Source of the DNA: a virus
Lineage: Duplodnaviria; Heunggongvirae; Uroviricota; Caudoviricetes
Direction: 5' to 3' (one strand)
DNA length: 40,604 bases
Virus record (IMG/VR): IMGVR_UViG_2778261089_000001
Span: 1-40,604 of that record
Part shown: positions 1 through 40,604 of the stretch, piece by piece
Position numbering within the stretch: the stretch's first letter is position 1
Layout: each line of letters opens with the position of its first letter
Notes under the pieces: model-generated
Databases searched by the model: none
The model's input: only the letters and a program-made list of their open reading frames with translations
Told to the model about the DNA's origin: nothing
Position numbers and translations under genes: made by a program

Positions 1-14
1 TTGGTTTGGGAGAA
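1..14. other. Partial hix/gix-type DNA-invertase crossover site (central TT at 1-2, half-site GGTTTGGGAGAA)
   Basis: Window starts with TT GGTTTGGGAGAA, an inverted match to the site at 1816-1841; reading frame across it joins in-frame to the constant fibre segment. Confidence 0.5.
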
Positions 15-1517: not shown

Positions 1518-1518
1518 A

Positions 1519-22382: not shown

Positions 22383-22387
22383 TAACC

Positions 22388-26185: not shown

Positions 26186-26868
26186 GCCGCCATCTCCCTG
26201 ACCAGTTTTTCCGCCTGCTGGCGAACCTGCGCCAGAAACGCCTCACCACATGCCTCAAGTTCATCGCGCCCGATGTAGCTGATTGCCGGTCCCTTCCAGG
26301 TCTTATCGAAAACAGCAATAGCACCAGCGAAGAAAGCGCCTGTCGGCACCTGCTTCTCGTCTTTCGGGATAAACCAGACAGGCAGTTCAAAACCAATACG
26401 CCCGCGAATAAAAGCAATATGATCTGCATCTTCCGGCCACCACACTTCGCTGGTGGCAGCTTTGATCAGGAAAACATAGCGCCCGCCTTTATCACGCATG
26501 GCACTGGCATGCTTCATGATGTAACGCATGCCGGTGATGTATTGCCCCTCATGCTGACTGGCGCGGCTGTATGGGGGATTACCAAAGGCAGCACCTTTAA
26601 GCTCCGCAAGACGTTCTGACCAGTCATGCGCCAGCGCGTTGTCTTCCGCCGTGTAATACGCGGCACATTTGGCGTTATCACCGTCAGTAAAAAGATCCAG
26701 AACAAACGGGCCAAACAGAGTGTTAATTCCCCAGAAAATGTTATCCGGCGTGCGCCACTGATCGCCCACTTCCTTCAGTTCATGGGCTGGTTTGTTCCGT
26801 AGTTCCACCAGCGCCTGGCAATATTTATTACTCATTAAGCCCCCACGTAATTCCCTGACAGATACCAC
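26182..26868 (-). CDS. Phage N6-adenine DNA methyltransferase (phage Dam family)
   Basis: 228 aa with NPPY catalytic motif (AAFGNPPYS). Confidence 0.8.
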   Translation of the reverse strand: MVSVRELRGGLMSNKYCQALVELRNKPAHELKEVGDQWRTPDNIFWGINTLFGPFVLDLFTDGDNAKCAAYYTAEDNALAHDWSERLAELKGAAFGNPPYSRASQHEGQYITGMRYIMKHASAMRDKGGRYVFLIKAATSEVWWPEDADHIAFIRGRIGFELPVWFIPKDEKQVPTGAFFAGAIAVFDKTWKGPAISYIGRDELEACGEAFLAQVRQQAEKLVREMAA

Positions 26869-27329
26869 TCATCACTCGATACAGCGCGCTTGCTGCTTTT
26901 CCGTAAACACTGCTCACGACGCGCCAGAAAATTGTTTCGTTCTGGCTGGGAGTGGCTTTCACGGAATGCCGCCATCCACACCGTTGCAGCACGACGGTAT
27001 AAGCCCCTGGACTCCAGTTCTTCCGCCTGGCGGGTCAGGCACAAAATCACCCGGGGATCGTTAGTGCCGACATAGAAATTGCGCACAGGTCTGGTTTCAC
27101 GAACTGGTTGTGGTTCCGGCTCCTGCGCTCTCTCAGTCAGGCGCGGGAAATGTCTGCGTGTATCTCCTTCACAACGGTGAGCCACACGCCCACTCTGACG
27201 TAACTTGCTTGCAGACTGCAGAACGCGCTGCCGTGAGTAACCTGCAAAAGCATCCGCAATGTCTCCGGAAGTACACCCCGGATGGGCTTCAATGAATTTC
27301 TGAACGTCATTTAACAGACTCATGATCAC
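26835..27329 (-). CDS. Hypothetical early-region protein
   Basis: 164-aa ORF translationally coupled between replication gene and Dam. Confidence 0.4.
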   Translation of the reverse strand: MIMSLLNDVQKFIEAHPGCTSGDIADAFAGYSRQRVLQSASKLRQSGRVAHRCEGDTRRHFPRLTERAQEPEPQPVRETRPVRNFYVGTNDPRVILCLTRQAEELESRGLYRRAATVWMAAFRESHSQPERNNFLARREQCLRKSSKRAVSSDEWYLSGNYVGA

Positions 27330-28267
27330 CCCCTGAATCCTGCCGGGATCTGGCTGTAGTCCACGTTGTCGTAACTGGATTTGAAGTACGGGTCTTCGCG
27401 TTTTTCGGTGTACGTGCTGACGGACGGTGATAAGCGCAGGGAAAGCTCATCCCATTTTTCCCGCAACTTCGACGGGCTGAGCACGTTACGGCACCAGAAC
27501 GGATCGCGGCTGACGCGGCTGTACATCTCGCAGATTTGTTTGTGAGTACGACCATCCTGCACACACATCAGGCGAATTTCGTTTGCCCAGGCTGTCCAGT
27601 TCGGTTCTTTGGGACGAACCACCTCGCCGTCACATTCGGCGGCTTGCTCGTACAGGGCGATGATTTTTTTCCAGAGCCACTGTGCGCAGGTCAAATCATC
27701 CTGCGTTCCCCACTGGCGCTTTTTAGGGCTGAATACAACCGCATCAGGATGGCGAGTTAAAAAATCCTGTTCATCCGTCTGCGTGTCCGGTTGCGAAGCG
27801 TCCGGACGAGAAGGTTTTTTATCTGACGGATCATGTTTTGATTTTACTGACGGATCCCCGCCAGATTCTGACGGGTGAAAACCCGCTTTTTTGCCAGATT
27901 TCGACGCATCAAATTTTGACGGGTCAGATTTTGATGCGTCAGATTTTGACGGGTCAGAATCTGACAGTTGAGAAAATGCCGCTGCCTGAAGCTTCGCAAC
28001 GTTAAGCTGATAAACATTCGACGCATTGCGGTTACCCTGGCGACGCGCCTTACGCGTTAACCAGCCTTCTGCTTCCAGCCGTGCGATAGCCGTCCTGACG
28101 GTACTCATCCCCGCGCCAATCTGACGGGCAATAGTTTCAATTGATGGCCAGCACACACCTTCGTCATTACTGAAATCAGCCAGGCGGGCCATAATTGCCA
28201 CGCTGGATAATTTCATGCCTGATGCAGCGCAACCATCCCATACATAGCCGGTTAATTTAGTGCTCAT
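27326..28267 (-). CDS. Replication initiation protein (O-like, HTH N-terminus, internal origin iterons)
   Basis: 313 aa; N-terminal winged-HTH-like region; central repeat peptides encoded by iterons. Confidence 0.7.
   Translation of the reverse strand: MSTKLTGYVWDGCAASGMKLSSVAIMARLADFSNDEGVCWPSIETIARQIGAGMSTVRTAIARLEAEGWLTRKARRQGNRNASNVYQLNVAKLQAAAFSQLSDSDPSKSDASKSDPSKFDASKSGKKAGFHPSESGGDPSVKSKHDPSDKKPSRPDASQPDTQTDEQDFLTRHPDAVVFSPKKRQWGTQDDLTCAQWLWKKIIALYEQAAECDGEVVRPKEPNWTAWANEIRLMCVQDGRTHKQICEMYSRVSRDPFWCRNVLSPSKLREKWDELSLRLSPSVSTYTEKREDPYFKSSYDNVDYSQIPAGFRG
27821..27970. repeat. Origin iterons: at least 6 copies of a ~15-bp repeat (consensus AGATTTTGACGGGTC) inside the replication gene
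   Basis: Five contiguous 15-bp units at 27894-27970 plus degenerate copies at 27821-27877. Confidence 0.75.
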
Positions 28268-28276
28268 GACCGACCT

Positions 28277-28615
28277 CTATTTCCCTGAATTTACGACGAA
28301 ACTGTTCGAGCGGGCTGAAGCACTCATGCTCATAGCCTTCGCGGAGGTAGATAACTCGTTGTGTTTCCGGCTCCCAACGAATGACTCTGACGGGCACTCC
28401 GTAGTGATCTTTGAACCAGCGGTTAACTTGTCGCAAAGGACTGTCTCCTTCTGCCGGTTGAAATCACCCACAGCCCACTCAGCAAAGCTGTGGGTTACAA
28501 TTTCCCTGTCACCTGGTACATTAACTGCATAGCAATACTCCACCTTCGCTTTTCCACCCGGTACAGGAAGCGCAATCAGTTGCGAGCGACGGTAGTGTGT
28601 TGTTAAACTGTTCAT
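28277..28615 (-). CDS. Hypothetical early-region protein
   Basis: 112-aa ORF in operon between CII-like and replication genes. Confidence 0.35.
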
Positions 28616-29220
28616 GCGTTAGTTTCTCCACAGTCACGACACGCCACGGCGCCCGGAGCTGCACACTCGCGGGCGTCATTACTTTCTGAAATGCAAAAGA
28701 TTTTGTAGACCAGTGCTGCATGCTCCTGCAGCTTCGAAATTGAGAGATACAGCTCGTCGTTAATTGCTGTCTTCTCATGCGGTTCCACCACACCGTCTTC
28801 GATTGCCGAACGAATCTGTCTGGAATAACTGCCAATCTGTTCAATGACTTCCAGCAGGCGCTGGTTAATATCGGCGTTGTCCACATCCTCGACGTCAGGA
28901 AGAGACACAAAGACGCCATTTGCAGACTGCGCCACAGCGTCAGCAATGAAGTGAGTTCCACCAGCACGTTGCAAAATCATTGCCCATCCCAGCGGGAAAA
29001 TCTGATCGCCATCGGCACGAAGGCGGTTAAATAATGCGTTTTCTGTTACATCCAGCCAGTCAGCTGCTTCAGCGTAACCACCCGGCAACGCTGCGATAGT
29101 TTTTCTGACAGCTTTCACGTACCACTCAGGCTGTTTTTCTACTTTCCAGTGATGCTTACCCACGGTTAGCCTCATCGTTCTGTGGTTTCTGTTAATCGAT
29201 TTATCCATTAGATTTTTCAT
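28612..29220 (-). CDS. CII-like regulatory protein (Phage_CP76-like); start uncertain
   Basis: Position immediately after cro; the longest frame begins with GTG at 29277, ATG at 29220 chosen. Confidence 0.45.
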
Positions 29221-29401
29221 AAAGCTCAGGTTTAAATGGCAACCGTCCGCAAGTTCTATATGCAGCTTCTGCTGCACGTCCTTTTGGAATTAACTGGCCC
29301 GGACGGTTTCGCCACTGATAAACGGCTTCAGTTGTTATGCCGAAAAAAGCAGCAACTTTCTCAATACTGCCGAAGTAGCTTTCGATATCGTCAGTTGTCA
29401 T
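29201..29401 (-). CDS. cro: Cro-like HTH repressor
   Basis: 66 aa with HTH (AAFFGITTEAVYQWRN), divergent from cI across operator region. Confidence 0.75.
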   Translation of the reverse strand: MTTDDIESYFGSIEKVAAFFGITTEAVYQWRNRPGQLIPKGRAAEAAYRTCGRLPFKPELYEKSNG

Positions 29402-29498
29402 ACGCCCTCCAAACTAAGTTTTATTAGATGCTAATTACAAATCTATCTTTGGTCAATAAAAACTAAGATTACTTAGCAATTCAAGAAATGGTGCTCCT
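29402..29498. promoter_or_regulatory. Divergent operator/promoter region (OR-like) between cro and cI
   Basis: Repeated AACTAAG motifs at 29412 and 29461; palindrome CTAAGATTACTTAG at 29463-29476. Confidence 0.55.
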
Positions 29499-30125
29499 AT
29501 GGAAACGGTTGGTCAGCGTATAAAAGCTCTGAGAAGAGTTACCGGAACGTCCCAGAAAGAATTGGGTAAATTTTGTGGAGTAAGCGACGTTGCTGTGGGG
29601 TACTGGGAGAAAGACATCAATACCCCTGGTGGGGAGGCACTTTCGAAATTAGCGAAGTTCTTCAATACGTCAATAGATTACATTCTTTATGGTGCTGAGT
29701 TTGAAGGCAAACTCGTCACAAACATGCGCAGAGTTCCTGTAATATCGTGGGTTCAGGCTGGGCAGTTTACTGAGTGCAGGGCAGCAGAAGTGTTTAGTGA
29801 AGTGGACAAGTGGGTAGATACATCATTAAAGATTGGTGATAACTCATTTGCATTAGAGGTTAAAGGTGACTCCATGACTAACCCTAATGGCCTCCCAACA
29901 ATACCAGAAGGCGCAACAGTGATTGTAGATCCAGATGCAGAACCTCGTCATGGAAAAATAGTCATCGCTCGACTTGATGGAACAAACGAAGCTACAGTAA
30001 AAAAATTAGTCATCGATGGCCCTCAAAAGTTTTTAGTGCCATTAAATCCTCGGTATCCCAACATCCCTATCAATGGTAATTGCCTTATCATTGGTGTAGT
30101 CAAAGGAGTTCAATACGAACTCTAA
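29499..30125 (+). CDS. cI: CI-type repressor (HTH_XRE N-terminus, S24 LexA-like peptidase C-terminus)
   Basis: 208 aa; HTH QKELGKFCGVSDVAVGYWE; C-terminal S24 region with GDSM serine motif. Confidence 0.85.
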   Translation: METVGQRIKALRRVTGTSQKELGKFCGVSDVAVGYWEKDINTPGGEALSKLAKFFNTSIDYILYGAEFEGKLVTNMRRVPVISWVQAGQFTECRAAEVFSEVDKWVDTSLKIGDNSFALEVKGDSMTNPNGLPTIPEGATVIVDPDAEPRHGKIVIARLDGTNEATVKKLVIDGPQKFLVPLNPRYPNIPINGNCLIIGVVKGVQYEL

Positions 30126-30129
30126 GACC

Positions 30130-30200
30130 TCTCTTCTCTAACTAAGGCACCGAACTAAGAAAAGTTTGGTGTTTTCTCTTGCCATAATAACTAAGTTAAG
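30130..30200. promoter_or_regulatory. Second operator cluster (OL-like) downstream of cI
   Basis: Same ACTAAG motif family as OR recurs at 30141, 30153 and 30189. Confidence 0.4.
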
Positions 30201-30331
30201 TTAGATTTTATATCAAAGATAACGAACAGGCAGGACGCCCACGAAGTAGCCGCCTGGGGCATATGAAGTCCAGGATGATTCGTTGAGTCATGTTGTGCCA
30301 CCAGGCACTCATGTTAAAGCAGGTGTATGAA

Positions 30332-30607
30332 ATGAAAGTCCAGATTTTAAACAATAACTGTGAAGTCGTTTGGTCATACGACATAGCCGCCCCTGTAGAT
30401 CAGAGCGGCGATAGCTGGACCAATGGGAAACATCAGATTATGGCTGGAGTTGTGTTCTCTTTACGCCGTGCTTTGGAACAGGCTGAAGTATTTCCATCAG
30501 ACCCTGAATGGAAATGGCCTTTTTCTATTTGTCCAAATTCGGAGAGCACATTTCAGAAAATTGGTCAGAAAGTCGCACTCGAAGAGCATCAGCCAACTGT
30601 TTCCTGA
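30332..30607 (+). CDS. Hypothetical protein, first ORF of leftward early operon
   Basis: 92 aa from ATG with AGGTG RBS; no family recognised. Confidence 0.4.
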   Translation: MKVQILNNNCEVVWSYDIAAPVDQSGDSWTNGKHQIMAGVVFSLRRALEQAEVFPSDPEWKWPFSICPNSESTFQKIGQKVALEEHQPTVS

Positions 30608-30770
30608 TTTTTTCAGGTAACTCGTCGGCATCGCAGAAACAACAACGCTCGATCATGTTGAAAGCCGATTCGTAGAACTGTTTCTGCTGAGTGTCGCTGA
30701 GACAGGAAAAGAGCGACGTTACGATGATTTTATTAATTGCATTATCAAGTTCTTTTTCATCAAAAGTCAT
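30525..30770 (-). CDS. Hypothetical small Cys-containing protein
   Basis: 81-aa ORF convergent with and overlapping previous ORF; weak RBS. Confidence 0.25.
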   Translation of the reverse strand: MTFDEKELDNAINKIIVTSLFSCLSDTQQKQFYESAFNMIERCCFCDADELPEKIRKQLADALRVRLSDQFSEMCSPNLDK

Positions 30771-31025
30771 TTGATTTTCATTTTATGTATACGGGCTTAA
30801 AAGGATACCACCGAGCCTGAAGTGGTGAAAAGACAGGCACATAACAGCTAAGTATTTTCAACCAAAGAGAATCCTTAGCGTTGTGGTGAATGAGGCTCAG
30901 CGCACGCGGGTTAAGATTGAGGCTGACAGTCGACCTTCTGTGGATACCCACCCGTCTGGTGTGCAACCTTCGCCAGGCACCGGGAGGCACCCGGCACCAC
31001 AACTTTATGCTGTGTGTAGTCTTGG

Positions 31026-31068
31026 CGGTACCAGCTTGTACCCTTGCTTCCGGCTGGTACCGTCCTTT
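31026..31068 (+). terminator. Rho-independent terminator-like hairpin (10-bp stem CGGTACCAGC/GCTGGTACCG plus T-run)
   Basis: Perfect 10-bp stem, 17-nt loop, followed by TCCTTTTTA. Confidence 0.45.
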
Positions 31069-31070
31069 TT

Positions 31071-31159
31071 ACAAAACAGAGAAGAGCATCACCGGACGAC
31101 GGGCTCATAACCCAATCCATCCGGGCGGCTGCCACCGCAGGTGTTCTTCTCTGTTTTGT
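31071..31159 (+). ncRNA. Candidate structured RNA element: 15-bp perfect inverted repeat enclosing a 59-nt GC-rich segment
   Basis: ACAAAACAGAGAAGA at 31071-31085 pairs with TCTTCTCTGTTTTGT at 31145-31159; region lacks a convincing ORF. Confidence 0.35.
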
Positions 31160-31283
31160 GGAGAAACTAACCGCCCCTACGGGGGCATTTATGGAAATGT
31201 AATTAACTCAATAATCGCCGGACGGTGAGGGCTTCCTTTTACCCGAGTTCAGCGCGGTGCAGCGCATATACGTGGAGAACAAA

Positions 31284-31820
31284 ATGTCATTTATTAAAAC
31301 TTTTTCCGGGAAGCATTTCTATTATGACAGGATAAATAAAAACGACATCGTTATTAACGATATCGCGGTTTCCCTTTCAAATATCTGTCGCTTTGCAGGA
31401 CATCTTTCACACTTCTACAGTGTCGCCCAACATGCGGTGCTTTGCAGCCAGTTGGTGCCGCAGGAATTTGCTTTTGAAGCTTTAATGCATGATGCAACAG
31501 AAGCGTATTGCCAGGACATCCCCGCACCACTGAAACGACTTCTTCCTGACTATAAACGGATGGAAGAAAAAATAGACGCCGTAATCCGTGAGAAATACGG
31601 GTTACCTCCTGTTATGAGCACGCCAGTGAAATATGCCGATCTCATCATGCTGGCAACCGAACGCCGCGATCTCGGGCTTGATGATGGCTCTTTCTGGCCT
31701 GTGCTGGAAGGTATCCCGGCAACAGAGATGTTCAACGTGATTCCACTGGCTCCAGGCCATGCCTACGGGATGTTTATGGAACGCTTTAACGAATTATCGG
31801 AGTTACGCAAATGCGCATGA
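31284..31820 (+). CDS. HD-domain phosphohydrolase-like protein
   Basis: H...HD motif (HFYSVAQHAV...MHDATEAY); start taken at MSFIKT. Confidence 0.5.
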   Translation: MSFIKTFSGKHFYYDRINKNDIVINDIAVSLSNICRFAGHLSHFYSVAQHAVLCSQLVPQEFAFEALMHDATEAYCQDIPAPLKRLLPDYKRMEEKIDAVIREKYGLPPVMSTPVKYADLIMLATERRDLGLDDGSFWPVLEGIPATEMFNVIPLAPGHAYGMFMERFNELSELRKCA

Positions 31821-32173
31821 ATGTTTTCGAAATGGAAGGGTTTCTTCGCGGGAAATGTGTACCGCGAGATCTGAAAGTGAACGAAACAAATGCTGAGTAC
31901 CTGGTACGTAAATTCGACGCGCTTGAAGCTAAATGTGCGGCACTGGAAAGCAAAATAATACCAGTGTCAGCTGAACTGCCACCAGCAAATGAAAGTGTTC
32001 TGTTATTTGATGCTAACGGAGAAGGCTGGCTGATTGGCTGGCGTTCTCTCTGGTACACCTGGGGACAAAAAGAAACCGGAGAATGGCAGTGGACATTTCA
32101 GGTCGGGGACCTTGAAAACGTCAATATCACTCACTGGGCAGTAATACCGAAAGCACCGGAGACTAAGAAATGA
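31811..32173 (+). CDS. DUF551-like phage protein (Trp-rich C-terminus)
   Basis: 120 aa; C-terminal GWLIGWRSLWYTWG...WQW. Confidence 0.45.
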   Translation: MRMNVFEMEGFLRGKCVPRDLKVNETNAEYLVRKFDALEAKCAALESKIIPVSAELPPANESVLLFDANGEGWLIGWRSLWYTWGQKETGEWQWTFQVGDLENVNITHWAVIPKAPETKK

Positions 32174-32385
32174 GCGTGATAAAAACTCATACAGGAATTG
32201 TTATCACCCGAGACGGTGAAAAGCGGATGAAATTACATTCCACTGAAACGTCCTGGGTTGCCGGACGTTGTGAATCCTATGACAAAAAGACTGGTTACCG
32301 TTGGGGTGCACCTAACATGCGTCGCCGTCTGCTACTGGACAGCATCAGGCCAATAAAACAGGTAGCAACCAGGGAACAAAATTAA
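32170..32385 (+). CDS. Hypothetical small protein
   Basis: 71-aa ORF translationally coupled to DUF551-like gene. Confidence 0.35.
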   Translation: MSVIKTHTGIVITRDGEKRMKLHSTETSWVAGRCESYDKKTGYRWGAPNMRRRLLLDSIRPIKQVATREQN

Positions 32386-32432
32386 TTATCAGGACTGGAA
32401 TTTGATATTACTGCCCGTGTGCAGCGGGCTAA

Positions 32433-32651
32433 GTGGAGAAACATATGCTGAACCTCGATTGTGTTCCAATCTCAACTTATTGCAAAGAAACTGGCGAAAC
32501 TCCTGAAGCAATAAACAAACGTGTACAGCGCGGTGTTTGGCGTGAAGGTGTTCAGGTTTTAAAGGTTGAAGGCGTTAAGGAGAGGTGGATTGACCTTAGT
32601 GAGGTTGCAAAATGGGCCAGACAAAACTGCTCAAACTACCGCGCGGCGTAA
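32433..32651 (+). CDS. xis: Excisionase-like protein
   Basis: 72-aa basic protein immediately upstream of and overlapping integrase. Confidence 0.6.
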   Translation: MEKHMLNLDCVPISTYCKETGETPEAINKRVQRGVWREGVQVLKVEGVKERWIDLSEVAKWARQNCSNYRAA

Positions 32652-33778
32652 CAATCAGGAAACACCGCCAGGGCGAAACGATCAATATAACTTTCACCTA
32701 CAAAGGAGTTAAATGTCGTGAGCCTCTTTCCAATCTGGAAGTAACACCAAAGAACATTAAATACGCCGAGCGTACACTCGGCGAAATCCATAATAAGATC
32801 GAAAAGGGAACATTCATTTATGCAGAATATTTTCCCCGTTCTGCTCGTTTGAAAATTTTTGGTAATGCTGCTGCAGGCAAAACGGTAAAGATGTACCTGG
32901 ACGAATATCTTGAAATCTGCGAAACAAGAAAACTTTCACCCTCTACGATTGGTGGCTATAAAAAATGCCGTAGGGCGTTAGCCTCACTTCACATTTGCCC
33001 TGCAAGTGAATTAACACCAGCAACCCTGAAAGCGTGGATTCAAAGCCAGAAAACAACCTTAAAAACCATTCGCAACCAGTTATCTTTCCTGCGGTCAGCA
33101 CTTGATGAAGCCGTGACCGATGGGGTACTTCAAATTAACCCCGTATCGTTAGTAACAGCTTCGCGCTACCAAAGTGATAAGTCAGAAGCAGAAAGCAGCT
33201 ATGTGGTTGATCCGCTATCACCAGCAGAAGTTGATGCATTACTAGCAGCAGCCGGAAACAAACAATGGGAAAATCTGTTCCGGTTCGCTATACATACAGG
33301 CCTGCGTAGTTCTGAACTATGTGCCCTTCGATGGCGTGATATCGACTTTGTTGGAAAAACTGCCCATGTCCAGAGCGCAAGTGTTGTCGGTGTTATCAAA
33401 GGAACAAAGACAAAAGCCGGTACTCGTAAAGTTGAACTGACAGAAGAGGCTATGTTGGCGCTGATAAATCAGAAGCCATTTACATTCATGAAGGATGCTA
33501 CTGTCTTTGAAGATCCAAAGACCAATAAGCCTTGGGCAAGTGCTGATGCAATCAGGAAAAAAGCATGGGTGCCAACATTGCGAAAAGCAGGTATTCGTTA
33601 CAGAAACCCATATCAAACCAGGCATACATTCGCCACCAGCCATATCAGTCGGGGTGCAAATTTGTTTTGGCTTGCGGCTCAAATGGGTCATAAAGGGCCA
33701 GAAATGCTTTTCAGACACTATGGCTCATATTTGAAGGAATATGATGGACAAGCAAGCCTGAAGAAGATAAAAATATAA
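32612..33778 (+). CDS. int: Tyrosine integrase (phage integrase family)
   Basis: 388 aa; arm-binding-type N-terminus, C-terminal catalytic region with R...HxxR...Y pattern. Confidence 0.9.
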   Translation: MGQTKLLKLPRGVTIRKHRQGETINITFTYKGVKCREPLSNLEVTPKNIKYAERTLGEIHNKIEKGTFIYAEYFPRSARLKIFGNAAAGKTVKMYLDEYLEICETRKLSPSTIGGYKKCRRALASLHICPASELTPATLKAWIQSQKTTLKTIRNQLSFLRSALDEAVTDGVLQINPVSLVTASRYQSDKSEAESSYVVDPLSPAEVDALLAAAGNKQWENLFRFAIHTGLRSSELCALRWRDIDFVGKTAHVQSASVVGVIKGTKTKAGTRKVELTEEAMLALINQKPFTFMKDATVFEDPKTNKPWASADAIRKKAWVPTLRKAGIRYRNPYQTRHTFATSHISRGANLFWLAAQMGHKGPEMLFRHYGSYLKEYDGQASLKKIKI

Positions 33779-33835
33779 CCCATGTCTGAACTGTTGGCCA
33801 CCATTTGTGGCCATTTCATTGAACAAGGTACACAC

Positions 33836-35569
33836 ATGGCAAATCAAATAACTAAACTAAAAAAAATAAACGTTGTAAAATTCCGGGGGCTAAAAAATAT
33901 AAATATAGAATTTGGAACTCGCCTAACTGTTATTTGTGGGAAAAATGGCACATCTAAATCAACAATTCTTGGTATTATCGCCCAGATTTTCAGTTTTACA
34001 AAAGACTTATCTAAGAATCCTGAGATTGATTTAACACAATATAAGACATTAACTAATGGCAACTTCAAGTCAGCTTTCAGTGAGCATTTTAGACTCTCAG
34101 AACAATTTGATACTGCTGGTTCAATGGACGTCAAGATTAGTGTCTATGATGGAGCATTTAACAAACATCTTGAAAAACTAACATTGGGTCTATACAGTTC
34201 CAGCGACAGGGATAAATCAAGACCAATAGTCAGGGGTAATGATTCTATCCCGGGGAAAAACCAAAGTAGAAACGTTACCCATCCTGTTATTTTTTTAAGC
34301 TTAGCCAGGCTTCTCCCTATTACCCTTCGTACTGATTACTCAACAAGAGATGTTGAGTATATCAAGAAAAATGCTGATGATATAAGAATAATGAGTAATC
34401 AACTCTTATTAAAAAACAATGGATGTTCAGTAACAGCCACAAAAGGGATTATTGATTCAATGGTTGTACATGGTGATAATTATGACTACCAATCAGTTTC
34501 TGTTGGTGAAGATAATGTAGGACAATTAATCCAAGCAATATTTTCGTTTAAAAGGCTGAAAGAACTGTATGATGACTATCATGGAGGTATTTTATTAATT
34601 GATGAAGCGGATGCAGGTCTCTTCCCTGCGGCTCAGTTAGAATTAATTAACATCCTAACCAAAGCTGCTAAAAAATATGATTTGCAAATAATCATGACAT
34701 CTCATTCCCCACTAATAATTGAAGATGTTTTCAATCGTTCCAAACAAGACCCCAAAGGCTTCAAAACAATCTACCTAACAGATACTTATGGTGATATAAA
34801 AACAAAAGATAACTTATCATGGGCTGATATAAATGCGGATTTACATGTTGAGACGGTAAAAATCGATGATAAGATTAGTCTTCCAAAAGCTAACGTTTAT
34901 TTTGAAGATAAAGAAGGCTTTGATTTTTTCAAACAATTGATAACTGACAGAAGAATAAAAAAAATATTAAATCCATTAGGAAATATAAATATTAGCTGCT
35001 CTGCCATTTTGGATTTAATGGCAAGAAAAATCCCTGAATTTACAATTAAAAGTCTGGTGGTCTTAGACGGCGATGTTGCTCTAGATAACAGTGATAATGC
35101 AAAAAAAGCAAAAAAAGAGAAAAGCTTATGCTTACTTCCAAGCATCCTACCTCCAGACCAAATGATTTTCGAATTTTTATATAATTTACCTCCTGATGAT
35201 GTATATTGGAACAATACAAATAGGTTCACAAAAGCTGTATTTTTGAGAATAGCTAAAGATATAATCACATCATTAAAGATAGGTAACTACCCTATTAACT
35301 TACAAAACTTAATAGATAATTATAGAAAAGAAAATCAAAACCATGGTGGAACGGTTAGAAAACTTTTTAAAGATTTTGCACACACGCCTCAATTTCAGGC
35401 TCTAGTCAAAGGACGAGTTAAAAATAACCCATATCGATATTGGGTCAAGAAAAATCCTGAGCAATCTGATCGTTTCAGGAATGAACTAATAAAGAGCCTT
35501 AAAGTTATTATGACAAGTGGACATGGTGTTGATTCTGCTACCATCTCATCATATCTTTCAGATAACTAA
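33836..35569 (+). CDS. OLD-family-like ABC ATPase (Walker A GKNGTSKST, Walker B LLIDEADAG) with C-terminal Toprim-like region
   Basis: P-loop, D-loop and SHSP motifs; C-terminal EDKEG and VVLDGD acidic motifs; AT-rich; ORF track start at 33782. Confidence 0.65.
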   Translation: MANQITKLKKINVVKFRGLKNINIEFGTRLTVICGKNGTSKSTILGIIAQIFSFTKDLSKNPEIDLTQYKTLTNGNFKSAFSEHFRLSEQFDTAGSMDVKISVYDGAFNKHLEKLTLGLYSSSDRDKSRPIVRGNDSIPGKNQSRNVTHPVIFLSLARLLPITLRTDYSTRDVEYIKKNADDIRIMSNQLLLKNNGCSVTATKGIIDSMVVHGDNYDYQSVSVGEDNVGQLIQAIFSFKRLKELYDDYHGGILLIDEADAGLFPAAQLELINILTKAAKKYDLQIIMTSHSPLIIEDVFNRSKQDPKGFKTIYLTDTYGDIKTKDNLSWADINADLHVETVKIDDKISLPKANVYFEDKEGFDFFKQLITDRRIKKILNPLGNINISCSAILDLMARKIPEFTIKSLVVLDGDVALDNSDNAKKAKKEKSLCLLPSILPPDQMIFEFLYNLPPDDVYWNNTNRFTKAVFLRIAKDIITSLKIGNYPINLQNLIDNYRKENQNHGGTVRKLFKDFAHTPQFQALVKGRVKNNPYRYWVKKNPEQSDRFRNELIKSLKVIMTSGHGVDSATISSYLSDN

Positions 35570-35649
35570 TTGATTAAAAAGGGTTTTATGTGATGTCCAT
35601 AAAGCCCTTTTTTTTGATATACTCTAGATCTGACATTTAGAGGTATCAT

Positions 35650-36549
35650 ATGCGTTTTAACACCCCACTTCGCTATCCTGGCGGTAAAGGCAAGCTTGCA
35701 AATTTCATACTTCGGATTATTGAAGAAAATAATCTTTCGCCTATACATTATGCCGAACCATATGCTGGAGGGGCTGGCTTAGCATTGAAACTTTTACATT
35801 TAAATGCAGCTGAAAAAATCATCCTTAATGATATTAATATTTCTGTTTATGCTTTTTGGTACAGTGTATTAAATCATGCAGATCAATTATGTTCTTTAAT
35901 TGAAAGAACTGAAGTTACAATGGATGAATGGTTTAAGCAGAAAGATATAATTAATAATCCGAAAGACCATGATCTTTTAACAATTGGTTTCTCAACCTTT
36001 TTTCTCAATAGAACAAATCGTTCTGGAATATTAAAAGGTGGAGTAATTGGCGGTAAAAATCAAGAAGGAAAATGGAAGCTTGACGCTCGCTATAATAAGA
36101 GTGATTTGATTTCTCGAATCCATAAAATATCAGAAAATCGTCACAGAATAGATTTATATAACATGGATGCAATTGATTTCATTGAAAAAATAGTCATTCA
36201 ATTGCCACAAAACTCATTAACATATTTGGATCCACCTTATTACATAAAAGGTAAAGGTTTATATATCAACCATTATGATCATGATGATCATGTTAGGGTT
36301 GCAAAAGTCGTACAGAATAATATTAAAACGCCTTGGATTGTTTCTTACGATAACACTCCTGAGATCCAAGCTATGTATAAGACATCATCATTAGTATATG
36401 GAATAAACTACAGTGCTCAAGATCGGTACAAAGGATCTGAGGTAATGTTCTTCAGTGAACGGTTGAAAATCTTTAAAACAGATGATCCAACTAAGGTAAA
36501 AGCACCTGTATTTAAAAGAGGATATGTTGACGACCACATCCAGACATAA
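35650..36549 (+). CDS. D12-class N6-adenine DNA methyltransferase (Dam-like)
   Basis: Motifs RYPGGK, EPYAGGAG and catalytic DPPY; AT-rich. Confidence 0.85.
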   Translation: MRFNTPLRYPGGKGKLANFILRIIEENNLSPIHYAEPYAGGAGLALKLLHLNAAEKIILNDINISVYAFWYSVLNHADQLCSLIERTEVTMDEWFKQKDIINNPKDHDLLTIGFSTFFLNRTNRSGILKGGVIGGKNQEGKWKLDARYNKSDLISRIHKISENRHRIDLYNMDAIDFIEKIVIQLPQNSLTYLDPPYYIKGKGLYINHYDHDDHVRVAKVVQNNIKTPWIVSYDNTPEIQAMYKTSSLVYGINYSAQDRYKGSEVMFFSERLKIFKTDDPTKVKAPVFKRGYVDDHIQT

Positions 36550-36621
36550 AAGGAGCCGCAAAAGATCCGCAGAATAAAATAGTTAGTATTAATCGTTTTA
36601 TTTCAGCTAATTATAAAAATA

Positions 36622-36654
36622 CGGACTCGGGTTCAACTCCCGCCAGCTCCACCA
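36622..36654 (+). other. ssrA: tmRNA (ssrA) 3'-end fragment = attachment-site core at prophage boundary
   Basis: CGGACTCGGGTTCAACTCCCGCCAGCTCCACCA matches the ssrA 3' acceptor/T-arm; no full ssrA upstream (MTase gene occupies that space). Confidence 0.8.
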
Positions 36655-36701
36655 AAATTCTCCATCGGTGATTACCAGAGTCATCCGATGAAGTCCTAAG
36701 A

Positions 36702-36733
36702 GCCCGCACGGCGCAAGCCCTGCGGGCTTTTTT
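36702..36733 (+). terminator. Rho-independent terminator (native ssrA downstream terminator)
   Basis: GCCCGCA...TGCGGGC stem followed by TTTTTTG. Confidence 0.65.
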
Positions 36734-36787
36734 GTGCCCTCAATTTGTCCCGCGAAGTCCGAAGAAAACTAATTAAATCCGATCCTT

Positions 36788-36841
36788 TTAGGCACCTTGT
36801 TAGGCACCTCATAAAGCTTTATTGTTTTTTGAGGTGCCTAA
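36788..36841. repeat. Three copies of TTAGGCACC (two direct, one inverted) upstream of integrase
   Basis: Copies at 36788-36796, 36800-36808 and inverted at 36833-36841. Confidence 0.6.
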
Positions 36842-36859
36842 AACTATGGAAACCCGGCA

Positions 36860-38101
36860 ATGGCAAGACAAACCAAACCTCTATCCGTTAAAGAAATAGA
36901 ATCAGCCAAACCCAAGGAGGCGGACTACGTTCTCTATGATGGCGATGGCCTTGAGCTACTCATTAAATCCAGCGGGAGTAAAATCTGGCAGTTTCGCTAC
37001 ATTCGCCCTGTCACCAAGAAACGAGCAAAGAAGAGCATAGGCTCCTACCCGTCAGTTACCCTTGCCGATGCCAGAAACTACCGTGCAGAGTCCCGCTCAC
37101 TACTGGCTAAACAGATCGATCCGCAGGAACATCAGCAAGAACAATTGCGCAGTTCGCTGGAAGCCAAAACCAACACTTTCCAACTCGTAGCTGAACGTTG
37201 GTGGAATGTGAAGAAAGCCAGTGTGACAGAGGACTATGCGGAAGATATCTGGCGCTCTCTTGAAAGAGACGTCTTTCCTGCGATTGGCGACGTTAGCGTT
37301 ACAGATATTAAAGCTCATACACTGGTTCAGGCCGTACAACCGGTTCAGGCCAGAGGAGCACTGGAAACTGTTCGTCGCCTGTGCCAACGTATTAATGAGG
37401 TCATGATCTATGCCCAGAACACAGGGCTGATTGATGCTGTTCCCAGCGTTAATATCGGTAAAGCCTTCGAGAAGCCTCAGAAAAAGAACATGCCCAGCAT
37501 TCGACCGGATCAGCTACCTCAGTTAATGCAGACGATGCGAACAGCCAGCATTAGCCTTTCCACACGCTGCCTGTTCATGTGGCAACTTCTTACTATTACC
37601 CGCCCTGCCGAAGCGGCTGAAGCTCTCTGGGAAGAGGTAGACATAGAAGCGCGAGAGTGGAAGATTCCTGCAGCACGCATGAAAATGAACCGCGACCATA
37701 CTGTTCCATTGTCAGATGAAGCAATTGCGATACTAGAGATGATGAAGCCGTTAAGTGGAAATCGAGAATTTATCTTTCCCAGCCGCATCAAGCCAAACCA
37801 GCCGATGAACAGTCAGACCGTAAACGCATCGCTAAAACGCGCAGGTTTTGGTGGGGTGCTCGTTTCACACGGCCTGCGATCTATCGCCAGTACAGCCCTT
37901 AATGAGCAGGGATTTCCACCTGATGTTATTGAGGCTGCACTTGCTCATGTGGATAAGAATGAGGTTCGTCGTGCGTATAACCGTAGTGATTATCTTGAGC
38001 AGCGACGGCCTATGATGCAGTGGTGGGCTGATTTTGTGATGGCTGCAGATCACGGTAGTATGATTGAAGGAGGGATAAAGGCAATGCGGTTAGTTGGATG
38101 A
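36860..38101 (+). CDS. intA: Tyrosine integrase, P4/CP4-57 IntA-like
   Basis: 413 aa; N-terminus MARQTKPLS...YDGDGLELLIKSSGSKIWQFRY typical of P4-type integrases. Confidence 0.85.
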   Translation: MARQTKPLSVKEIESAKPKEADYVLYDGDGLELLIKSSGSKIWQFRYIRPVTKKRAKKSIGSYPSVTLADARNYRAESRSLLAKQIDPQEHQQEQLRSSLEAKTNTFQLVAERWWNVKKASVTEDYAEDIWRSLERDVFPAIGDVSVTDIKAHTLVQAVQPVQARGALETVRRLCQRINEVMIYAQNTGLIDAVPSVNIGKAFEKPQKKNMPSIRPDQLPQLMQTMRTASISLSTRCLFMWQLLTITRPAEAAEALWEEVDIEAREWKIPAARMKMNRDHTVPLSDEAIAILEMMKPLSGNREFIFPSRIKPNQPMNSQTVNASLKRAGFGGVLVSHGLRSIASTALNEQGFPPDVIEAALAHVDKNEVRRAYNRSDYLEQRRPMMQWWADFVMAADHGSMIEGGIKAMRLVG

Positions 38102-38181
38102 CATGTCGTAGCTAAAACCCGTTCTGTTTTTGGGTAGATTAACCTGAAGGTCTGCAATTTTAAATGACGCTGAAAGAAGTT

Positions 38182-38208
38182 AAACCCTGCTCTTAAGCAG
38201 GGTTTTTA
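38182..38208 (+). terminator. Rho-independent terminator (possibly bidirectional) between int and convergent large ORF
   Basis: CCCTGC-TCTTAA-GCAGGG followed by TTTTTAT. Confidence 0.6.
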
Positions 38209-38239
38209 TGATTTATTCTAATTTTGGTTTTGAATCTTT

Positions 38240-40543
38240 CTATTTTAAATCAGCCTTTGCGGCTCGAATATCTGCGTTTTTTGCTGAGTATTCCCATTCG
38301 TCAGCGATTCTAAATAGCATTGCAGAAGTACGGACGCAGTGGGGCATTGAATTTGCCCATTCTCGGTACTGCTCAGCTAATATCCTTTCTTGGTTTCCAC
38401 CTTCGTAACGCATACGAGCAAATACCCCCCTTTTATTGTACCTACCAATTTGTATACCTTGCTCTAACTCATCAGAAGATAATATTTCAATGATGTGCCG
38501 AATTGCTTCATGTGGCCAGGAATTATCTACTGAGCTATTAGGGGCATGTGCCAGAATTTTTCCTATTACATGATCAGTGATTTCTTGGCGATGATGCAAT
38601 TTTGCTAAATGGCGTACATTCTCACACCAATCTTCAAGTTTATCTTGATCAATTTCATTGTCTATCTGCCCTGGTAGTATTCGTAATTTTTCAAGTAATC
38701 TGTATATAGAAGTAGCTCTTTTAACTTCCAACTCCGATGGTTCTGTTTGTTCATCTTCGTCACTACGATATACAATACATATTGCTTCTATAAAAACCTC
38801 TGGCTTTTTCATCATTAGACGATGCAGGATAAGTGGCTCATCGCTATCCGGAAAACAAGGCAAGTAGGTCATTTCTTTAAATGCCAAATCTGTTTCAGAA
38901 ACATCGTTACGTTGTTTGAGTTCATCAAAAACTTTTTTTACATAGTACGATAGCATTGTATCAAATTGGATATCCTGGCTATTTATTTCTTTAACGACTA
39001 TATCTAGAAGATATAAAAGTGTTGTAGATGGAATCTCAGAAAGGCGTTGATTTGCTGATATAATAGCAGCAAGACCCCGGCCCCTTTCTATATATTTATC
39101 CATAAGAACAAATAAATCCGAAGTTTTACCCATCATTGCAATGGGTTGTTTTTGCAACCAATATTTTTCGTTGATGTTATCTTCAAACCCTTCAATAATG
39201 CTCCATATCTCTTGTGAGTCTCTTAACGATGCTAAGATTTTCCCAGCCCTATCAGGGGTAATTTTAAACTGTTTAAAATACACTTTTATTTTATTAAGCC
39301 ATTCAGCACCAAAGCATTCAACACCATATTGCATTAACAACCCACAAACTTCATCAATATTTTTTTTGTTGTTAATAAGCATTACAAACAAATCATTTAA
39401 TTTTTCTTCATCCAACGAGAGTGCTGATATATGCCTTGCTGCAATAAAAACATTATTAACTTGTTGAAAAAGGTCTTTCACCCCAGACAAACCTAAAGTA
39501 AAGTATATTTCCCTAAGTTTTTCACTTCGCATTTCTTCGACAGAAGAAAAAATTCCGCCAGCATTTTCAATTGACTCTTCAATATCAGAATCCCAATCAT
39601 TGAAAATCCATAAACTGGCTCTAACCATGTCAATTGGTTTATAATTATCAAGTATTTTCGCTATTTTTTCCATAGACTCAAATTTAAATGCCCAGTTCGC
39701 ATCTGAATATTTTTTATGGCGAGAATACTCATGACGCAAAGCCTCCCATACGATGAACTGATCCTCTTCAGTTTGTTGAGAAAGGCAAAGTTCAAGATGA
39801 GAAAGTGTTTCATCTATTGCATTCTCAGGGAATGAGCTTAAATGAGAGATTAGGATTTCCCATCTTGTTGGGAGTATACCTGCAAGTTTAATTGCTTCTT
39901 GGATAATAAAGATTTGCCCCTCCCAAACAACGCCCCACGTTAGTTTTTCTACATCTTTATCCGACTCTCTGAACTTCATTTTTTGGTTTTGATCAGAGGT
40001 ATCATGGGAGCGAGGAAGGAGATTTTGTAACAAACTCCACCCAATACTAGGAACAATAGTGATAATTTTTTTTATAATTGCATTTCTAACTTTTACTGGT
40101 GCCCATGTATTAGGAGACCATGCCAGAAAAATGGTTCTTAAACTATTAAGAGGGCGATCTGAGTAAGTTCCTCCGGGATCTATTACAGCGAGTTTTGCAA
40201 GACAGATTGCAGCGCGTAATAGATATGTTTGTTCCCAAGCCAAGGCTTCCAATGCCCATTTTAATCCATGATAATGACTTCGAGGAGTTAACAGCCCTTT
40301 ATCTTCATTGAATATTGGAGCAATCATTTCCCCATTGCCCTTAAGCAATTGCTCAAGGGCATCAAGGAAAGGGCCAGGGGCAGCTTCTGCCAGCAGCGGA
40401 AGTTGATCTCGCAAACTAACAAATAGTCGATGGTCGTTAGCAAGTCCCGGAATACTCTGAACTATTTTGTTAACAAAATCTTGGGGTGTCATACCAGTAA
40501 CCCGGAATTCGGCCTGTTCATGTAATATGATCTTACCCAGCAA
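38240..40543 (-). CDS. Large hypothetical protein (767 aa), AT-rich island cargo
   Basis: Long uninterrupted ORF in low-GC DNA; helix-rich composition, no recognised motif. Confidence 0.6.
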   Translation of the reverse strand: MLGKIILHEQAEFRVTGMTPQDFVNKIVQSIPGLANDHRLFVSLRDQLPLLAEAAPGPFLDALEQLLKGNGEMIAPIFNEDKGLLTPRSHYHGLKWALEALAWEQTYLLRAAICLAKLAVIDPGGTYSDRPLNSLRTIFLAWSPNTWAPVKVRNAIIKKIITIVPSIGWSLLQNLLPRSHDTSDQNQKMKFRESDKDVEKLTWGVVWEGQIFIIQEAIKLAGILPTRWEILISHLSSFPENAIDETLSHLELCLSQQTEEDQFIVWEALRHEYSRHKKYSDANWAFKFESMEKIAKILDNYKPIDMVRASLWIFNDWDSDIEESIENAGGIFSSVEEMRSEKLREIYFTLGLSGVKDLFQQVNNVFIAARHISALSLDEEKLNDLFVMLINNKKNIDEVCGLLMQYGVECFGAEWLNKIKVYFKQFKITPDRAGKILASLRDSQEIWSIIEGFEDNINEKYWLQKQPIAMMGKTSDLFVLMDKYIERGRGLAAIISANQRLSEIPSTTLLYLLDIVVKEINSQDIQFDTMLSYYVKKVFDELKQRNDVSETDLAFKEMTYLPCFPDSDEPLILHRLMMKKPEVFIEAICIVYRSDEDEQTEPSELEVKRATSIYRLLEKLRILPGQIDNEIDQDKLEDWCENVRHLAKLHHRQEITDHVIGKILAHAPNSSVDNSWPHEAIRHIIEILSSDELEQGIQIGRYNKRGVFARMRYEGGNQERILAEQYREWANSMPHCVRTSAMLFRIADEWEYSAKNADIRAAKADLK

Positions 40544-40604
40544 TAGTGGACACGCGGCTAAGTGAGTAAACTCTCAGTCAGAGGTGACTCACATGACAAA
40601 AACA

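Follow-up and report, generated by a model that had tools for sequence, protein, structure and literature searches.

Among the described elements that occupy the tmRNA gene (ssrA), φNP is a phage of Citrobacter rodentium (Petty et al. 2011; Magaziner et al. 2019) whose integration site in Escherichia coli K-12 comprises the 25 bp at the very 3' end of ssrA (5'-GGTTCAACTCCCGCCAGCTCCACCA-3'), directly upstream of the CP4-57/IntA element (PMC6456863). The copy of the ssrA 3' end at the right end of K-12 CP4-57 bears the ΔT357 deletion, so that tmRNA is inactivated once the element excises (PMC10107115). Tandem arrays of integrative elements at tDNAs, including ssrA, have been described as well (Williams 2003, 'Traffic at the tmRNA gene'; Islander, PMC4383910); under the Islander definition, an integrase and a tDNA fragment of its own are required of each member of such an array (PMC4383910). 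Finally, the free phage LLS (PQ299149) carries a contiguous attP that is annotated as a tmRNA pseudogene/attP.

The locus analysed here comes from a 40,604-nucleotide stretch of a Caudoviricetes record (IMGVR_UViG_2778261089_000001; hereafter, the window) that corresponds to positions 1311-41914 of the contig NVPS01000034.1 (draft genome GCA_002462355.1). Right after the phage cargo genes, where the original prediction had placed a copy of the ssrA 3' end of about 33 nt, the window indeed contains 33 nt (plus strand, CGGACTCGGGTTCAACTCCCGCCAGCTCCACCA), of which 32 match the 3' end of E. coli ssrA (Table 1). The single mismatch is T36627, which aligns with G in the ssrA genes of GE3, H1827/12, GN4143 and K-12. 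With up to 3 mismatches allowed, the window has no other match, and 100 shuffled sequences yielded none at all. Because neither ARAGORN nor Rfam detects a tmRNA or tRNA gene in the window, these 33 nt are a fragment rather than a gene. In contrast to the ΔT357 copy at the right end of the K-12 element, the fragment keeps the wild-type CGCCAGCTCCACCA.

Table 1. Features of the tandem ssrA locus (window coordinates)
Feature	Position	Strand	Basis or remark
Prophage body, incomplete in the window	1-36627		~4.8 kb of the left end lie outside
Probable Xis (ORF overlapping the start of int)	32433-32651	+	Positional homologue of the annotated φNP xis
Phage tyrosine integrase, 388 aa, φNP type, ssrA-specific	32612-33778	+	Arm-DNA-bind_2, Phage_int_SAM_5, Phage_integrase
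AAA_15/21 ATPase	33782-35569	+	Pfam; PADLOC matches to PtuA/AriA/GajA-like ATPases
Dam-type methylase	35650-36549	+	Pfam; PADLOC PD-Lambda-5_B, E = 7e-124
Phage-derived P arm of attR	36550-36627	+	300/300 with the attP left arm of contig SRR25451619_2; includes T36627, the phage allele
Displaced ssrA 3' fragment	36622-36654	+	T-arm, 3' acceptor strand, CCA
att core, 28 bp, CGGGTTCAACTCCCGCCAGCTCCACCAA	36628-36655	+	Only sequence common to attP, attB, attL and attR
Island left arm: ssrA trailer, rho-independent terminator, int leader	36655-36859	+	300/300 with the GE3 sequence after ssrA
IntA-type (P4-like) integrase	36860-38101	+	Arm-DNA-bind_3, Phage_int_M, Phage_integrase; NCBIfam PRK09692, 931 bits, full length
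First island cargo ORF, 767 aa	38240-40543	-	No family match

The nature of the fragment becomes apparent from a comparison of four att sites, namely, attP of a 41.3-kb circular-type phage contig, attB of GE3, attL of H1827/12, and attR of the window. The left arm of attP is identical to the left arm of the window attR, and its right arm to the right arm of the H1827/12 attL (300/300 in both cases). Conversely, the left arm of the GE3 attB matches that of the H1827/12 attL at 299 of 300 positions, and its right arm is identical to that of the window attR (300/300). The phage arms and the bacterial arms are unrelated to each other (93/300 for the P arm left of the core against the ssrA sequence on that side, and 61/300 for the other pair). 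This is the pattern of an exact reciprocal exchange between attP and attB at a shared core, with attL and attR as its products and with arms matching at 299-300 of 300 positions; the two direct repeats, when aligned, have only the 28-bp core in common. The fragment is very likely the right att repeat of the prophage, as originally proposed. Since the core is the only stretch shared by all four sites, strand exchange must fall within it, and φNP's own mismatch probably narrows the crossover to 36630-36654.

The attP site itself is contiguous within the 41,313-nt contig SRR25451619_2, which represents the same phage genome as the prophage, in the order tail genes, Pin, GIY-YIG, Dcm, restriction endonuclease (RE), attP, Dam, AAA ATPase; a complete phage gene set surrounds it. 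Elsewhere, the phage right end seen in the window is joined to other right flanks, namely, the unoccupied-site flank followed by ypjA, in one context (L014), and at least one other P4-type island, with a 409-aa integrase, in three (L013, L016, L017). These comparisons dispose of the notion that the fragment reflects chance similarity or a pseudo-ssrA that arose by local duplication, with no phage integration involved: the short length of the fragment could be taken as a hint in that direction, but the shuffled sequences yielded no match, the breakpoint coincides exactly with the point of exchange between attP and attB, and an identical fragment is found inside attP of free or excised phage DNA. 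The four-way comparison refutes this explanation.

The recombination module of the prophage is of the φNP type. The segment comprising xis, int, the AAA ATPase, Dam and attP is 85.8% identical at the nucleotide level between the window (32413-36654) and φNP (40691-44932), and in both phages, int is separated from the core by 2.8 kb and two cargo genes alone. Both are myoviruses with equal gene order, the published 25-bp att site of φNP lies inside the 28-bp core, and the position of φNP upstream of CP4-57/IntA in K-12 matches the arrangement seen here. The phage integrase is 93% identical to φNP Int at the amino acid level, 87.6% to that of the Klebsiella phage Kp4866-6, and 84.9% to that of LLS, and by analogy with φNP, for which integration at ssrA has been published (PMC6456863), it would be expected to act at this site. 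The ORF assigned as Xis has no family match of its own. The placement of the phage integrase requires correction: the gene lies at the fragment end of the prophage and does not adjoin the intact ssrA. The two cargo genes between int and attP (33782-36549; GC content, 0.33) probably constitute a defence pair of the PD-λ-5 type, judging by their domain and PADLOC matches.

Outside this module, the window phage and φNP differ. The virion and early genes here resemble those of SfV, SfII and vB_EcoM-689R6, and the left-end cargo consists of an EcoRII-like RE, Dcm and GIY-YIG, whereas φNP carries ddi, hicAB and sat. The P-arm mismatch falls at another position (T36627 here, GCTGG in φNP), and the P' arms also differ over the ~15 nt that immediately follow CCA. 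LLS shares the order xis, int, cargo, ssrA fragment, P' arm, cargo, invertase, tail fibres, along with a homologous P' arm, but differs in the cargo genes and in its P-arm copy of ssrA, where the match begins at GCGGG and the position corresponding to T36627 is not mismatched.

The prophage body consists of minus-strand virion and lysis genes of an SfV/SfII-like myovirus, followed by Q, replication genes and cro/cI, and a plus-strand early-left operon with xis-int and the cargo. The region 12000-36660 is 98% identical to phage vB_EcoM-689R6 over 69% of its length, and SfII and SfV are related to it too. Relative to its two nearest complete genomes, the window is mosaic: positions 1-25000 are 100% identical to the ssrA prophage of H1827/12, and positions 25001-40604 are 99.7% identical to GN4143. 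An intact ssrA gene at the left end of the prophage, outside the window, had been predicted, and it is present in the relatives. In H1827/12, it lies 4.77 kb to the left of window position 1 (Rfam tmRNA, 296.6 bits) and is followed by the EcoRII-like RE, Dcm, GIY-YIG and Pin, and then by the tail fibre genes that open the window; GN4143 has the same left junction, and in four further lysogen contigs, smpB is followed by the same prophage left end. An Rfam scan of the attL flank returned no match besides tmRNA. As the window's own contig ends 1,310 nt to the left of the window, before ssrA, the left end and the intact ssrA of the source genome are deduced from these near-identical relatives.

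This leaves room for a rearranged source genome, in which the left part of the prophage, after recombination between related prophages, would not lie beside ssrA, so that the fragment would be a relic with its attL partner elsewhere. The absence of the left end from the contig and the mosaicism of the window relative to the closest complete genomes fit such a scenario, and GN4143, where the same two end modules surround a different, lambda-like tail region, attests to active module exchange. Nevertheless, we consider it highly improbable. The RE-Dcm-GIY-YIG-Pin module, together with myovirus baseplate and tail genes, is found beside smpB/ssrA in six contexts, that is, in H1827/12 and in 5 of the 10 contexts returned (one of these five, L042, is an internally deleted remnant), and otherwise meets the phage right end only via attP, in one circular-type contig. 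As for the other four contexts, one lysogen contig stops short of smpB (L041), two P2-like phages share only the tail-fibre assembly protein, and one myovirus of the same type has a different end module and occupies another site (L044).

Downstream of the fragment, the window enters the IntA-type island. The sequence here is letter-for-letter that which follows ssrA in GE3, and for the first ~110-125 nt also that in K-12, where the annotation puts this trailer stretch inside CP4-57. The terminator hairpin (36698-36731, with a U-run to ~36737) was identified by terminator scan and folding; the 124-nt stretch starting at 36622 folds with z = -4.8. The original prediction described a native-looking ssrA terminator at this place. 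A strong hairpin is there, but it is not native: unoccupied ssrA sites carry a flank other than 36655-36859, and in H1827/12, a different island at ssrA brings a different trailer and terminator. On the strength of these alignments, the terminator is borne by the IntA island and travels with it, rather than belonging to the chromosome. The P4/IntA-type integrase that had been predicted some 205 bp further on is present, with 85% identity to K-12 IntA over all 413 aa, and the distance from CCA to ATG is 205 nt in both the window and GE3; the spacing in K-12, said to be the same, is 203 nt and so is very nearly the same.

Thus, the island resembles CP4-57 in its position and orientation after the ssrA 3' end, its integrase and the proximal part of its trailer. 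The differences are that the left att of the island is a displaced fragment here and the live gene in K-12, and that the cargo starts with the 767-aa ORF, for which there was no match in Pfam, NCBIfam or PADLOC, instead of yfjH/alpA. Furthermore, the right end of the island in the closest relatives, along with any psaA-like fragment, has been lost at an IS3-family element. Both the window and its contig stop at the place where relatives have an IS3 element; in GE3, a homologue of the 767-aa ORF is followed by IS3. In both GE3 and GN4143, the island contains several IS elements and ends at the IS3-family element that truncates ypjA; searches of 49 kb of GE3 and 48 kb of GN4143 yielded neither a further copy of the ssrA 3' end (at up to 3 errors), as a third repeat bounding the island, nor one of the unoccupied-site flank. 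Because there is no psaA-like right-end ssrA fragment bounding the IntA island in these two genomes, it is best called a remnant. We also considered a role of the prophage in shielding ssrA from an excision-coupled ΔT357 switch of the CP4-57 type (PMC10107115); this idea was dropped because the island in the closest relatives lacks the right att and cannot excise.

Genomes without the prophage bear on the order of the two insertions. In GE3, which is 99.975% identical to window positions 36622-40604, the intact ssrA is joined directly at 36622, a junction that is the expected product of precise excision of the phage. A direct fusion of ssrA to this IntA-type arm is present in 1023 of the 5426 complete E. 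coli genomes counted (a set apart from the window's own genome), compared to only 8 genomes with the phage-IntA junction. The claim that the phage inserted into ssrA upstream of an IntA island holds, given the four-way arm exchange and the relatives. The further claim that the island was pre-existing is a weaker one: the order of insertion is not readable from the junction sequence, and island first, phage second is the most parsimonious order. In the reverse order, the phage would have integrated first and the IntA island would have entered the displaced ssrA fragment at the phage attR. The final sequence would be identical, the fragment still has the last 15 nt used by integrases of the CP4-57 type and the complete 3'-end sublocation that the K-12 annotation gives as the CP4-57 att, and a phage with the unoccupied-site flank at its attR, a possible precursor, does exist. 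However, this order appears improbable, considering the 1023 direct junctions against 8, the decay of the island in GE3 and GN4143 (several IS elements, no right-end att) as opposed to the complete gene set of the prophage, and the fact that φNP demonstrably enters K-12 upstream of the resident CP4-57. Indeed, the IS-riddled island that lacks a right end in the relatives looks older than the intact prophage.

Taken together, the region 36550-36737 is very likely the attR of a temperate myovirus whose insertion at the ssrA 3' end proceeded by site-specific recombination mediated by a tyrosine integrase, with an older IntA island downstream. The exchange of arms, the presence in relatives of an intact ssrA gene to the left of the prophage, and the contiguous attP in excised or free phage DNA are evident at the sequence level. 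Under the proposed mechanism, the host would have already carried an IntA/CP4-57-type island at ssrA when the phage arrived, its attP duplicating the T-arm and 3' end of ssrA. The host gene would be split by recombination within the 28-bp core, with the crossover in or near the T-loop and with catalysis presumably by the 388-aa Int assisted by the upstream Xis. The 5' part of ssrA (335 nt) would be rejoined to the phage's own 3'-end copy and the phage-borne trailer and terminator, yielding attL ~4.8 kb to the left of the window and keeping tmRNA intact. The original 3' end of the host gene would be left beyond the prophage, fused to the int-proximal phage arm, as the 33-nt fragment. Given an island already at ssrA, the sequence after the fragment would be the trailer, terminator and integrase of that island, and the fragment would double as the attR of the prophage and the attL of the IntA island. 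The fragment itself is probably inert, and the island-borne terminator would now act on transcripts reading through from the int-cargo operon and no longer on those of ssrA.

The present locus is similar to the described tandem tDNA arrays in that two integrase-bearing elements lie side by side at one tDNA with a displaced 3' fragment in direct orientation between them, and in that restoration of the gene falls to the element closest to its intact copy. It may depart from the Islander definition of an array: both members have integrases, but a single fragment (36622-36654) is visible in the window, and that of the IntA member would lie outside it and is absent in the closest complete genomes. 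The arrangement is an ordinary and well-documented one.

The phage P' arm calls for a separate comment. The sequence after ssrA in the lysogens (ATCATGATTGG...) was at one point considered to be purely phage-derived, an interpretation that was rejected because a homologous flank is found to the right of CP4-57 in K-12 and in S171-1 and Rb-3, where the site is unoccupied; hence the phage arm is a look-alike of the unoccupied-site flank. The two are separable by allele, with the terminator stem GCCCGCTTATGCGGGC in the phage versus GCCCACAGATGTGGGC. In addition to the 28-bp core, attP carries a copy (~150 nt) of the sequence that lies downstream of ssrA where the site is unoccupied. From Escherichia to Erwinia and Mixta, this flank shows almost no variation; it contains three hairpins and a terminator with some compensatory changes, has no match among Rfam families, and is also present in the att region of phage Ayreon, which has an unrelated core. 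It is conceivable, albeit rather unlikely, that this seemingly undescribed flank is a functional element of the φNP family (arm-type sites for Int, Xis or IHF, or a sib-like retroregulator) or else a conserved pre-tmRNA trailer. If it is a phage element, the 'native' ssrA trailer that about half of the E. coli genomes carry would be what such phages left behind; if it is a trailer, phages would copy the flank to keep tmRNA maturation intact.

Beyond correct annotation, the importance of these findings is small. The right boundary of the prophage is fixed at 36627/36628-36655, the trailer and terminator (36655-36737) are ascribed to the IntA island and not the chromosome, and the integration module is identified as belonging to the experimentally validated φNP type. 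The locus also presents a clean natural case of serial occupation of ssrA, in which incoming elements bring their own copy of the 3' end and their own terminator, so that the end of tmRNA transcription is replaced at every integration.

Positions 36622-36654 (CGGACTCGGGTTCAACTCCCGCCAGCTCCACCA) match the final 33 nt of E. coli ssrA, comprising the T-arm, the 3' acceptor strand and CCA (the intact gene ends ...CGGACGCGGGTTCAACTCCCGCCAGCTCCACCA), with a single mismatch at T36627; at this position the gene begins its T stem with a G. The match is unique in the window at up to three mismatches, and none of 100 shuffles matched; neither ARAGORN nor Rfam detected a tmRNA or tRNA gene across the whole window. 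The ssrA stretch is a fragment, not a gene. The original prediction of a ~33-nt copy of the ssrA 3' end followed by a P4/IntA-type integrase was borne out, the latter having the P4-type architecture and 85% identity to K-12 IntA. Spacing was predicted to be the same as in K-12; the distance from CCA to the integrase start is 205 nt here, as in GE3, an E. coli strain without this prophage that carries the same integrase allele, whereas the K-12 value is 203 nt.

All four att sites were drawn from public sequence, with attL taken from the lysogen H1827/12, not from the window's own contig. The attR, in this window, consists of phage arm, core and IntA arm. In GE3, which provides attB, intact ssrA runs straight into the sequence starting at 36622, and GE3 is 99.975% identical to window 36622-40604. 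In attL, intact ssrA (Rfam tmRNA, 296.6 bits), as predicted for the left end of the prophage, is followed by ATCATGATTGG..., a terminator, an EcoRII-like restriction enzyme (RE), Dcm, a GIY-YIG protein, Pin and the same tail-fibre genes that open the window; this ssrA lies 4.77 kb left of window position 1. The attL junction in GN4143, another lysogen, is identical in kind. The attP lies on the 41,313-nt contig SRR25451619_2, a phage genome in which both ends of the prophage meet (tape measure, baseplate, tail fibre, Pin, GIY-YIG, Dcm, RE, attP, Dam, AAA ATPase). Over 300 nt on either side of the core, attP-left and attR-left, attP-right and attL-right, and attB-right and attR-right are identical (300/300 each), and attB-left matches attL-left at 299/300, compared with 93/300 for the left and 61/300 for the right arms of attP versus attB. 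When the direct repeats are aligned, CGGGTTCAACTCCCGCCAGCTCCACCAA (36628-36655) is the only sequence common to attP, attB, attL and attR. As read from these alignments, the arms are swapped in the way classically expected when attP x attB yields attL and attR.

The T at 36627 is of phage origin: attP and attR have it, and attB and attL have G; the exchange therefore lies to the right of 36627. In the Citrobacter rodentium phage φNP, the mismatch is two bases further in (GCTGG), and the published att is the 25 bp GGTTCAACTCCCGCCAGCTCCACCA (PMC6456863), which would place the crossover for this integrase family probably within 36630-36654, the T-loop with flanking inverted CGGG/CCCG.

The whole window is present in no complete E. 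coli genome; H1827/12 is 100% identical to 1-25000 and GN4143 99.7% identical to 25001-40604. By an exact-protein look-up, the window was traced to its source, the draft contig NVPS01000034.1 (GCA_002462355.1, 41,914 nt), which contains it at 1311-41914, as judged by offsets, with a 4.9-kb piece identical; the contig ends 1.3 kb left of the window, short of intact ssrA, and its right end is where relatives have an IS3 element. At 31170-31173, the window lacks a ~1.3-kb stretch present in H1827/12 and GN4143 that includes a yfdQ-type gene of the early-left operon.

Positions 1-36621 represent a temperate myovirus (see the table). The phage integrase does not adjoin intact ssrA; it belongs to the prophage end that carries the fragment, from which two cargo genes (33782-36549) separate it. 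These genes probably constitute a PD-λ-5-type defence system because the methylase matches PD-Lambda-5_B over its full length. The φNP Int shows 93% amino acid identity to this integrase, φNP carries the same ATPase and Dam-type methylase module, and the last 4.2 kb of its record (xis-int-AAA ATPase-Dam-att) match window 32413-36654 at 85.8%. The virion and early regions in the window are SfV/SfII-like, and the phage vB_EcoM-689R6 is 98% identical over 69% of 12000-36660.

Features of the window and positions of the ~150-nt element in compared loci
Feature	Sequence	Position	Strand	Remarks
Alternative fibre C-termini and assembly genes, facing	Window	6-503, 503-1105; 1077-1517, 1519-2118	+; -	
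Baseplate, sheath, tape measure, head, terminase, lysis genes, then Q and replication genes	Window		-	
KwaA	Window	21861-22382	+	PADLOC E = 2e-83
KwaB	Window	22388-23272	+	PADLOC E = 2e-150
cI-like repressor, then early genes	Window	from 29499	+	S24 peptidase and HTH
Small ORF	Window	32433-32651	+	Position of φNP xis
Tyrosine integrase	Window	32612-33778	+	388 aa
AAA_15/21 ATPase	Window	33782-35569	+	PtuA/AriA/GajA-like; low-GC cargo
Dam-type methylase	Window	35650-36549	+	Low-GC cargo; PADLOC PD-Lambda-5_B, E = 7e-124
Intrinsic terminator	Window	hairpin 36698-36731		Hairpin and U-run; terminator scoring
IntA-type integrase	Window	starts 36860		413 aa; Arm-DNA-bind_3 / Phage_int_M / Phage_integrase
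First cargo gene of IntA island	Window	38240-40543	-	767-aa low-GC ORF
~150-nt element	L003 (H1827/12 attL)	8414-8570		
~150-nt element	L009 (unoccupied site)	9125-9285		
~150-nt element	L015 (attP)	3003-3165		
~150-nt element	L011 (φNP)	26-185		
~150-nt element	L008 (Ayreon)	2991-3110		
~150-nt element	L021-L035			

The terminator beyond the fragment had been taken for that of ssrA itself. It is not native: 36655-36737 occurs only where an IntA-type integrase comes next, and the K-12 annotation places the equivalent inside CP4-57, the cryptic prophage carrying intA, whose start is set 15 nt before the ssrA end. H1827/12, with a different downstream island, has a different trailer and its own terminator. 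At unoccupied sites, without a downstream element, the sequence next to ssrA is ATCATGATTGG..., with another terminator (for example, S171-1, ssrA-ypjA, and Rb-3, ssrA-glaH); in K-12, this flank is found on the right side of CP4-57, beyond a 14-nt psaA fragment. Among 5426 complete genomes, ssrA is joined directly to the IntA-type arm in 1023 and to the ATCATG-type flank in 2528, a count in which unoccupied sites and lysogens are pooled. In GE3 and GN4143, the IntA island contains several IS elements and terminates at an IS3-family element truncating ypjA; no further ssrA-end copy or unoccupied-site flank was found within 48-49 kb. The first cargo gene of the island has no Pfam, NCBIfam or PADLOC match; its homologue is two ORFs in GN4143 and 750 aa in GE3.

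The same phage right end, with an identical Dam protein and an identical P arm, also occurs next to the unoccupied-site flank and ypjA (L014) and next to at least one further P4-type island with a 409-aa integrase (L013, L016 and L017); in H1827/12, the phage, with a different int-proximal cargo gene, adjoins an island of that further type. It follows that the phage is an element independent of the island downstream. The free phage LLS, isolated on K-12, shares the order xis-int-cargo-ssrA fragment-arm-cargo-invertase, with an Int 84.9% identical to that of the window's phage and the ssrA fragment annotated by its authors as 'tmRNA pseudogene / attP'. Experimentally, φNP lysogenises K-12 derivatives at the ssrA 3' end, regenerating the intact gene (PMC6456863), and K-12 has CP4-57 intA directly after ssrA, so that such laboratory lysogens match the arrangement in the window. 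The junction would look the same whichever element inserted first, and a phage that excised precisely would leave a GE3-type site behind. Island first and phage second is the parsimonious order, because the island is an old, immobilised, IS-laden remnant without a right end and the prophage has a complete gene set, and because the phage-IntA junction is found in 8 complete genomes versus the 1023 with the direct junction. The predicted integration and tandem arrangement are supported, with the left end read from relatives; a pre-existing island is parsimonious but not proven.

A ~150-nt flank, outside the window, follows ssrA at unoccupied sites and recurs in the P' arm of the window's phage, φNP and LLS, 3' of displaced ssrA fragments in K-12 and C. 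portucalensis, and, without the ssrA core, in the att arm of phage Ayreon. When one genome per species was scanned for the exact pattern, 15 matches appeared in Enterobacterales, 8 of them directly 3' of an intact tmRNA gene (Klebsiella indica, Raoultella, Leclercia, E. whittamii, Mixta, Pseudenterobacter, Erwinia tracheiphila). Conservation of the element extends from Escherichia to Erwinia and Mixta and is far above that of ordinary intergenic DNA. RNAalifold predicts three hairpins and a terminator, and several pairs show compensatory substitutions (CG/UA/AU at pair 84:92, for example); no Rfam family matched the element. Phages may have copied it from a native pre-tmRNA trailer, or it may have begun as part of a phage att arm and stayed behind in host genomes.

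Other cargo includes KwaA and KwaB, a full Kiwa defence pair that forms a moron of low GC (0.33) and is flanked by the lysis genes and Q (21861-23272, + strand). At the left prophage end in H1827/12 (L003 8648-11324), the stretch from attL to the tail fibres carries the EcoRII-like type II restriction enzyme and Dcm-type methylase as cargo; both att-adjacent prophage ends are therefore defence-gene hot spots. GN4143 (L001, NZ_CP142070.1 1186000-1201147) has RE-Dcm-GIY-YIG at ssrA, int-ATPase-Dam at the fragment and lambda-like siphovirus tail genes between these end modules; thus, integration and cargo ends have been swapped between phages of different virion types. An invertible tail-fibre segment (window 1-2118 plus L003 12562-13116 just outside) adjoins the Pin invertase and is in the opposite orientation in contigs L037 and L040.

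In the mechanism that we propose, Int (with Xis for excision) would carry out recombination between the core on the phage and the T-arm plus 3' end of ssrA; the phage P' arm would provide the remaining 3' end, trailer and terminator. The tmRNA in the lysogen has the wild-type sequence because the P' arm supplies the rest of the 3' end. The displaced host 3' end would be an inert 33-nt stub, without promoter or 5' partner, that now also serves the IntA remnant as its left att. The IntA-arm terminator would formerly have ended ssrA transcription in a GE3-type ancestor; now 3' of the int-ATPase-methylase operon, it probably, we infer, ends read-through from that operon. The reading of a prophage integrated at ssrA is correct, and this kind of integration is already documented: the integrase family, the 25-bp site and insertion upstream of CP4-57 have been published (PMC6456863). 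Among tDNAs, ssrA is the most enriched integration target, and Islander contains 125 tandem arrays at tDNAs (PMC4383910); that paper also refers to Williams 2003 ('Traffic at the tmRNA gene'). In K-12, the right-end copy of CP4-57 lacks T357, and CP4-57 excision inactivates tmRNA (PMC10107115). Unlike that copy, the fragment in the window retains the wild-type CGCCAGCTCCACCA, and excision would therefore restore normal ssrA.
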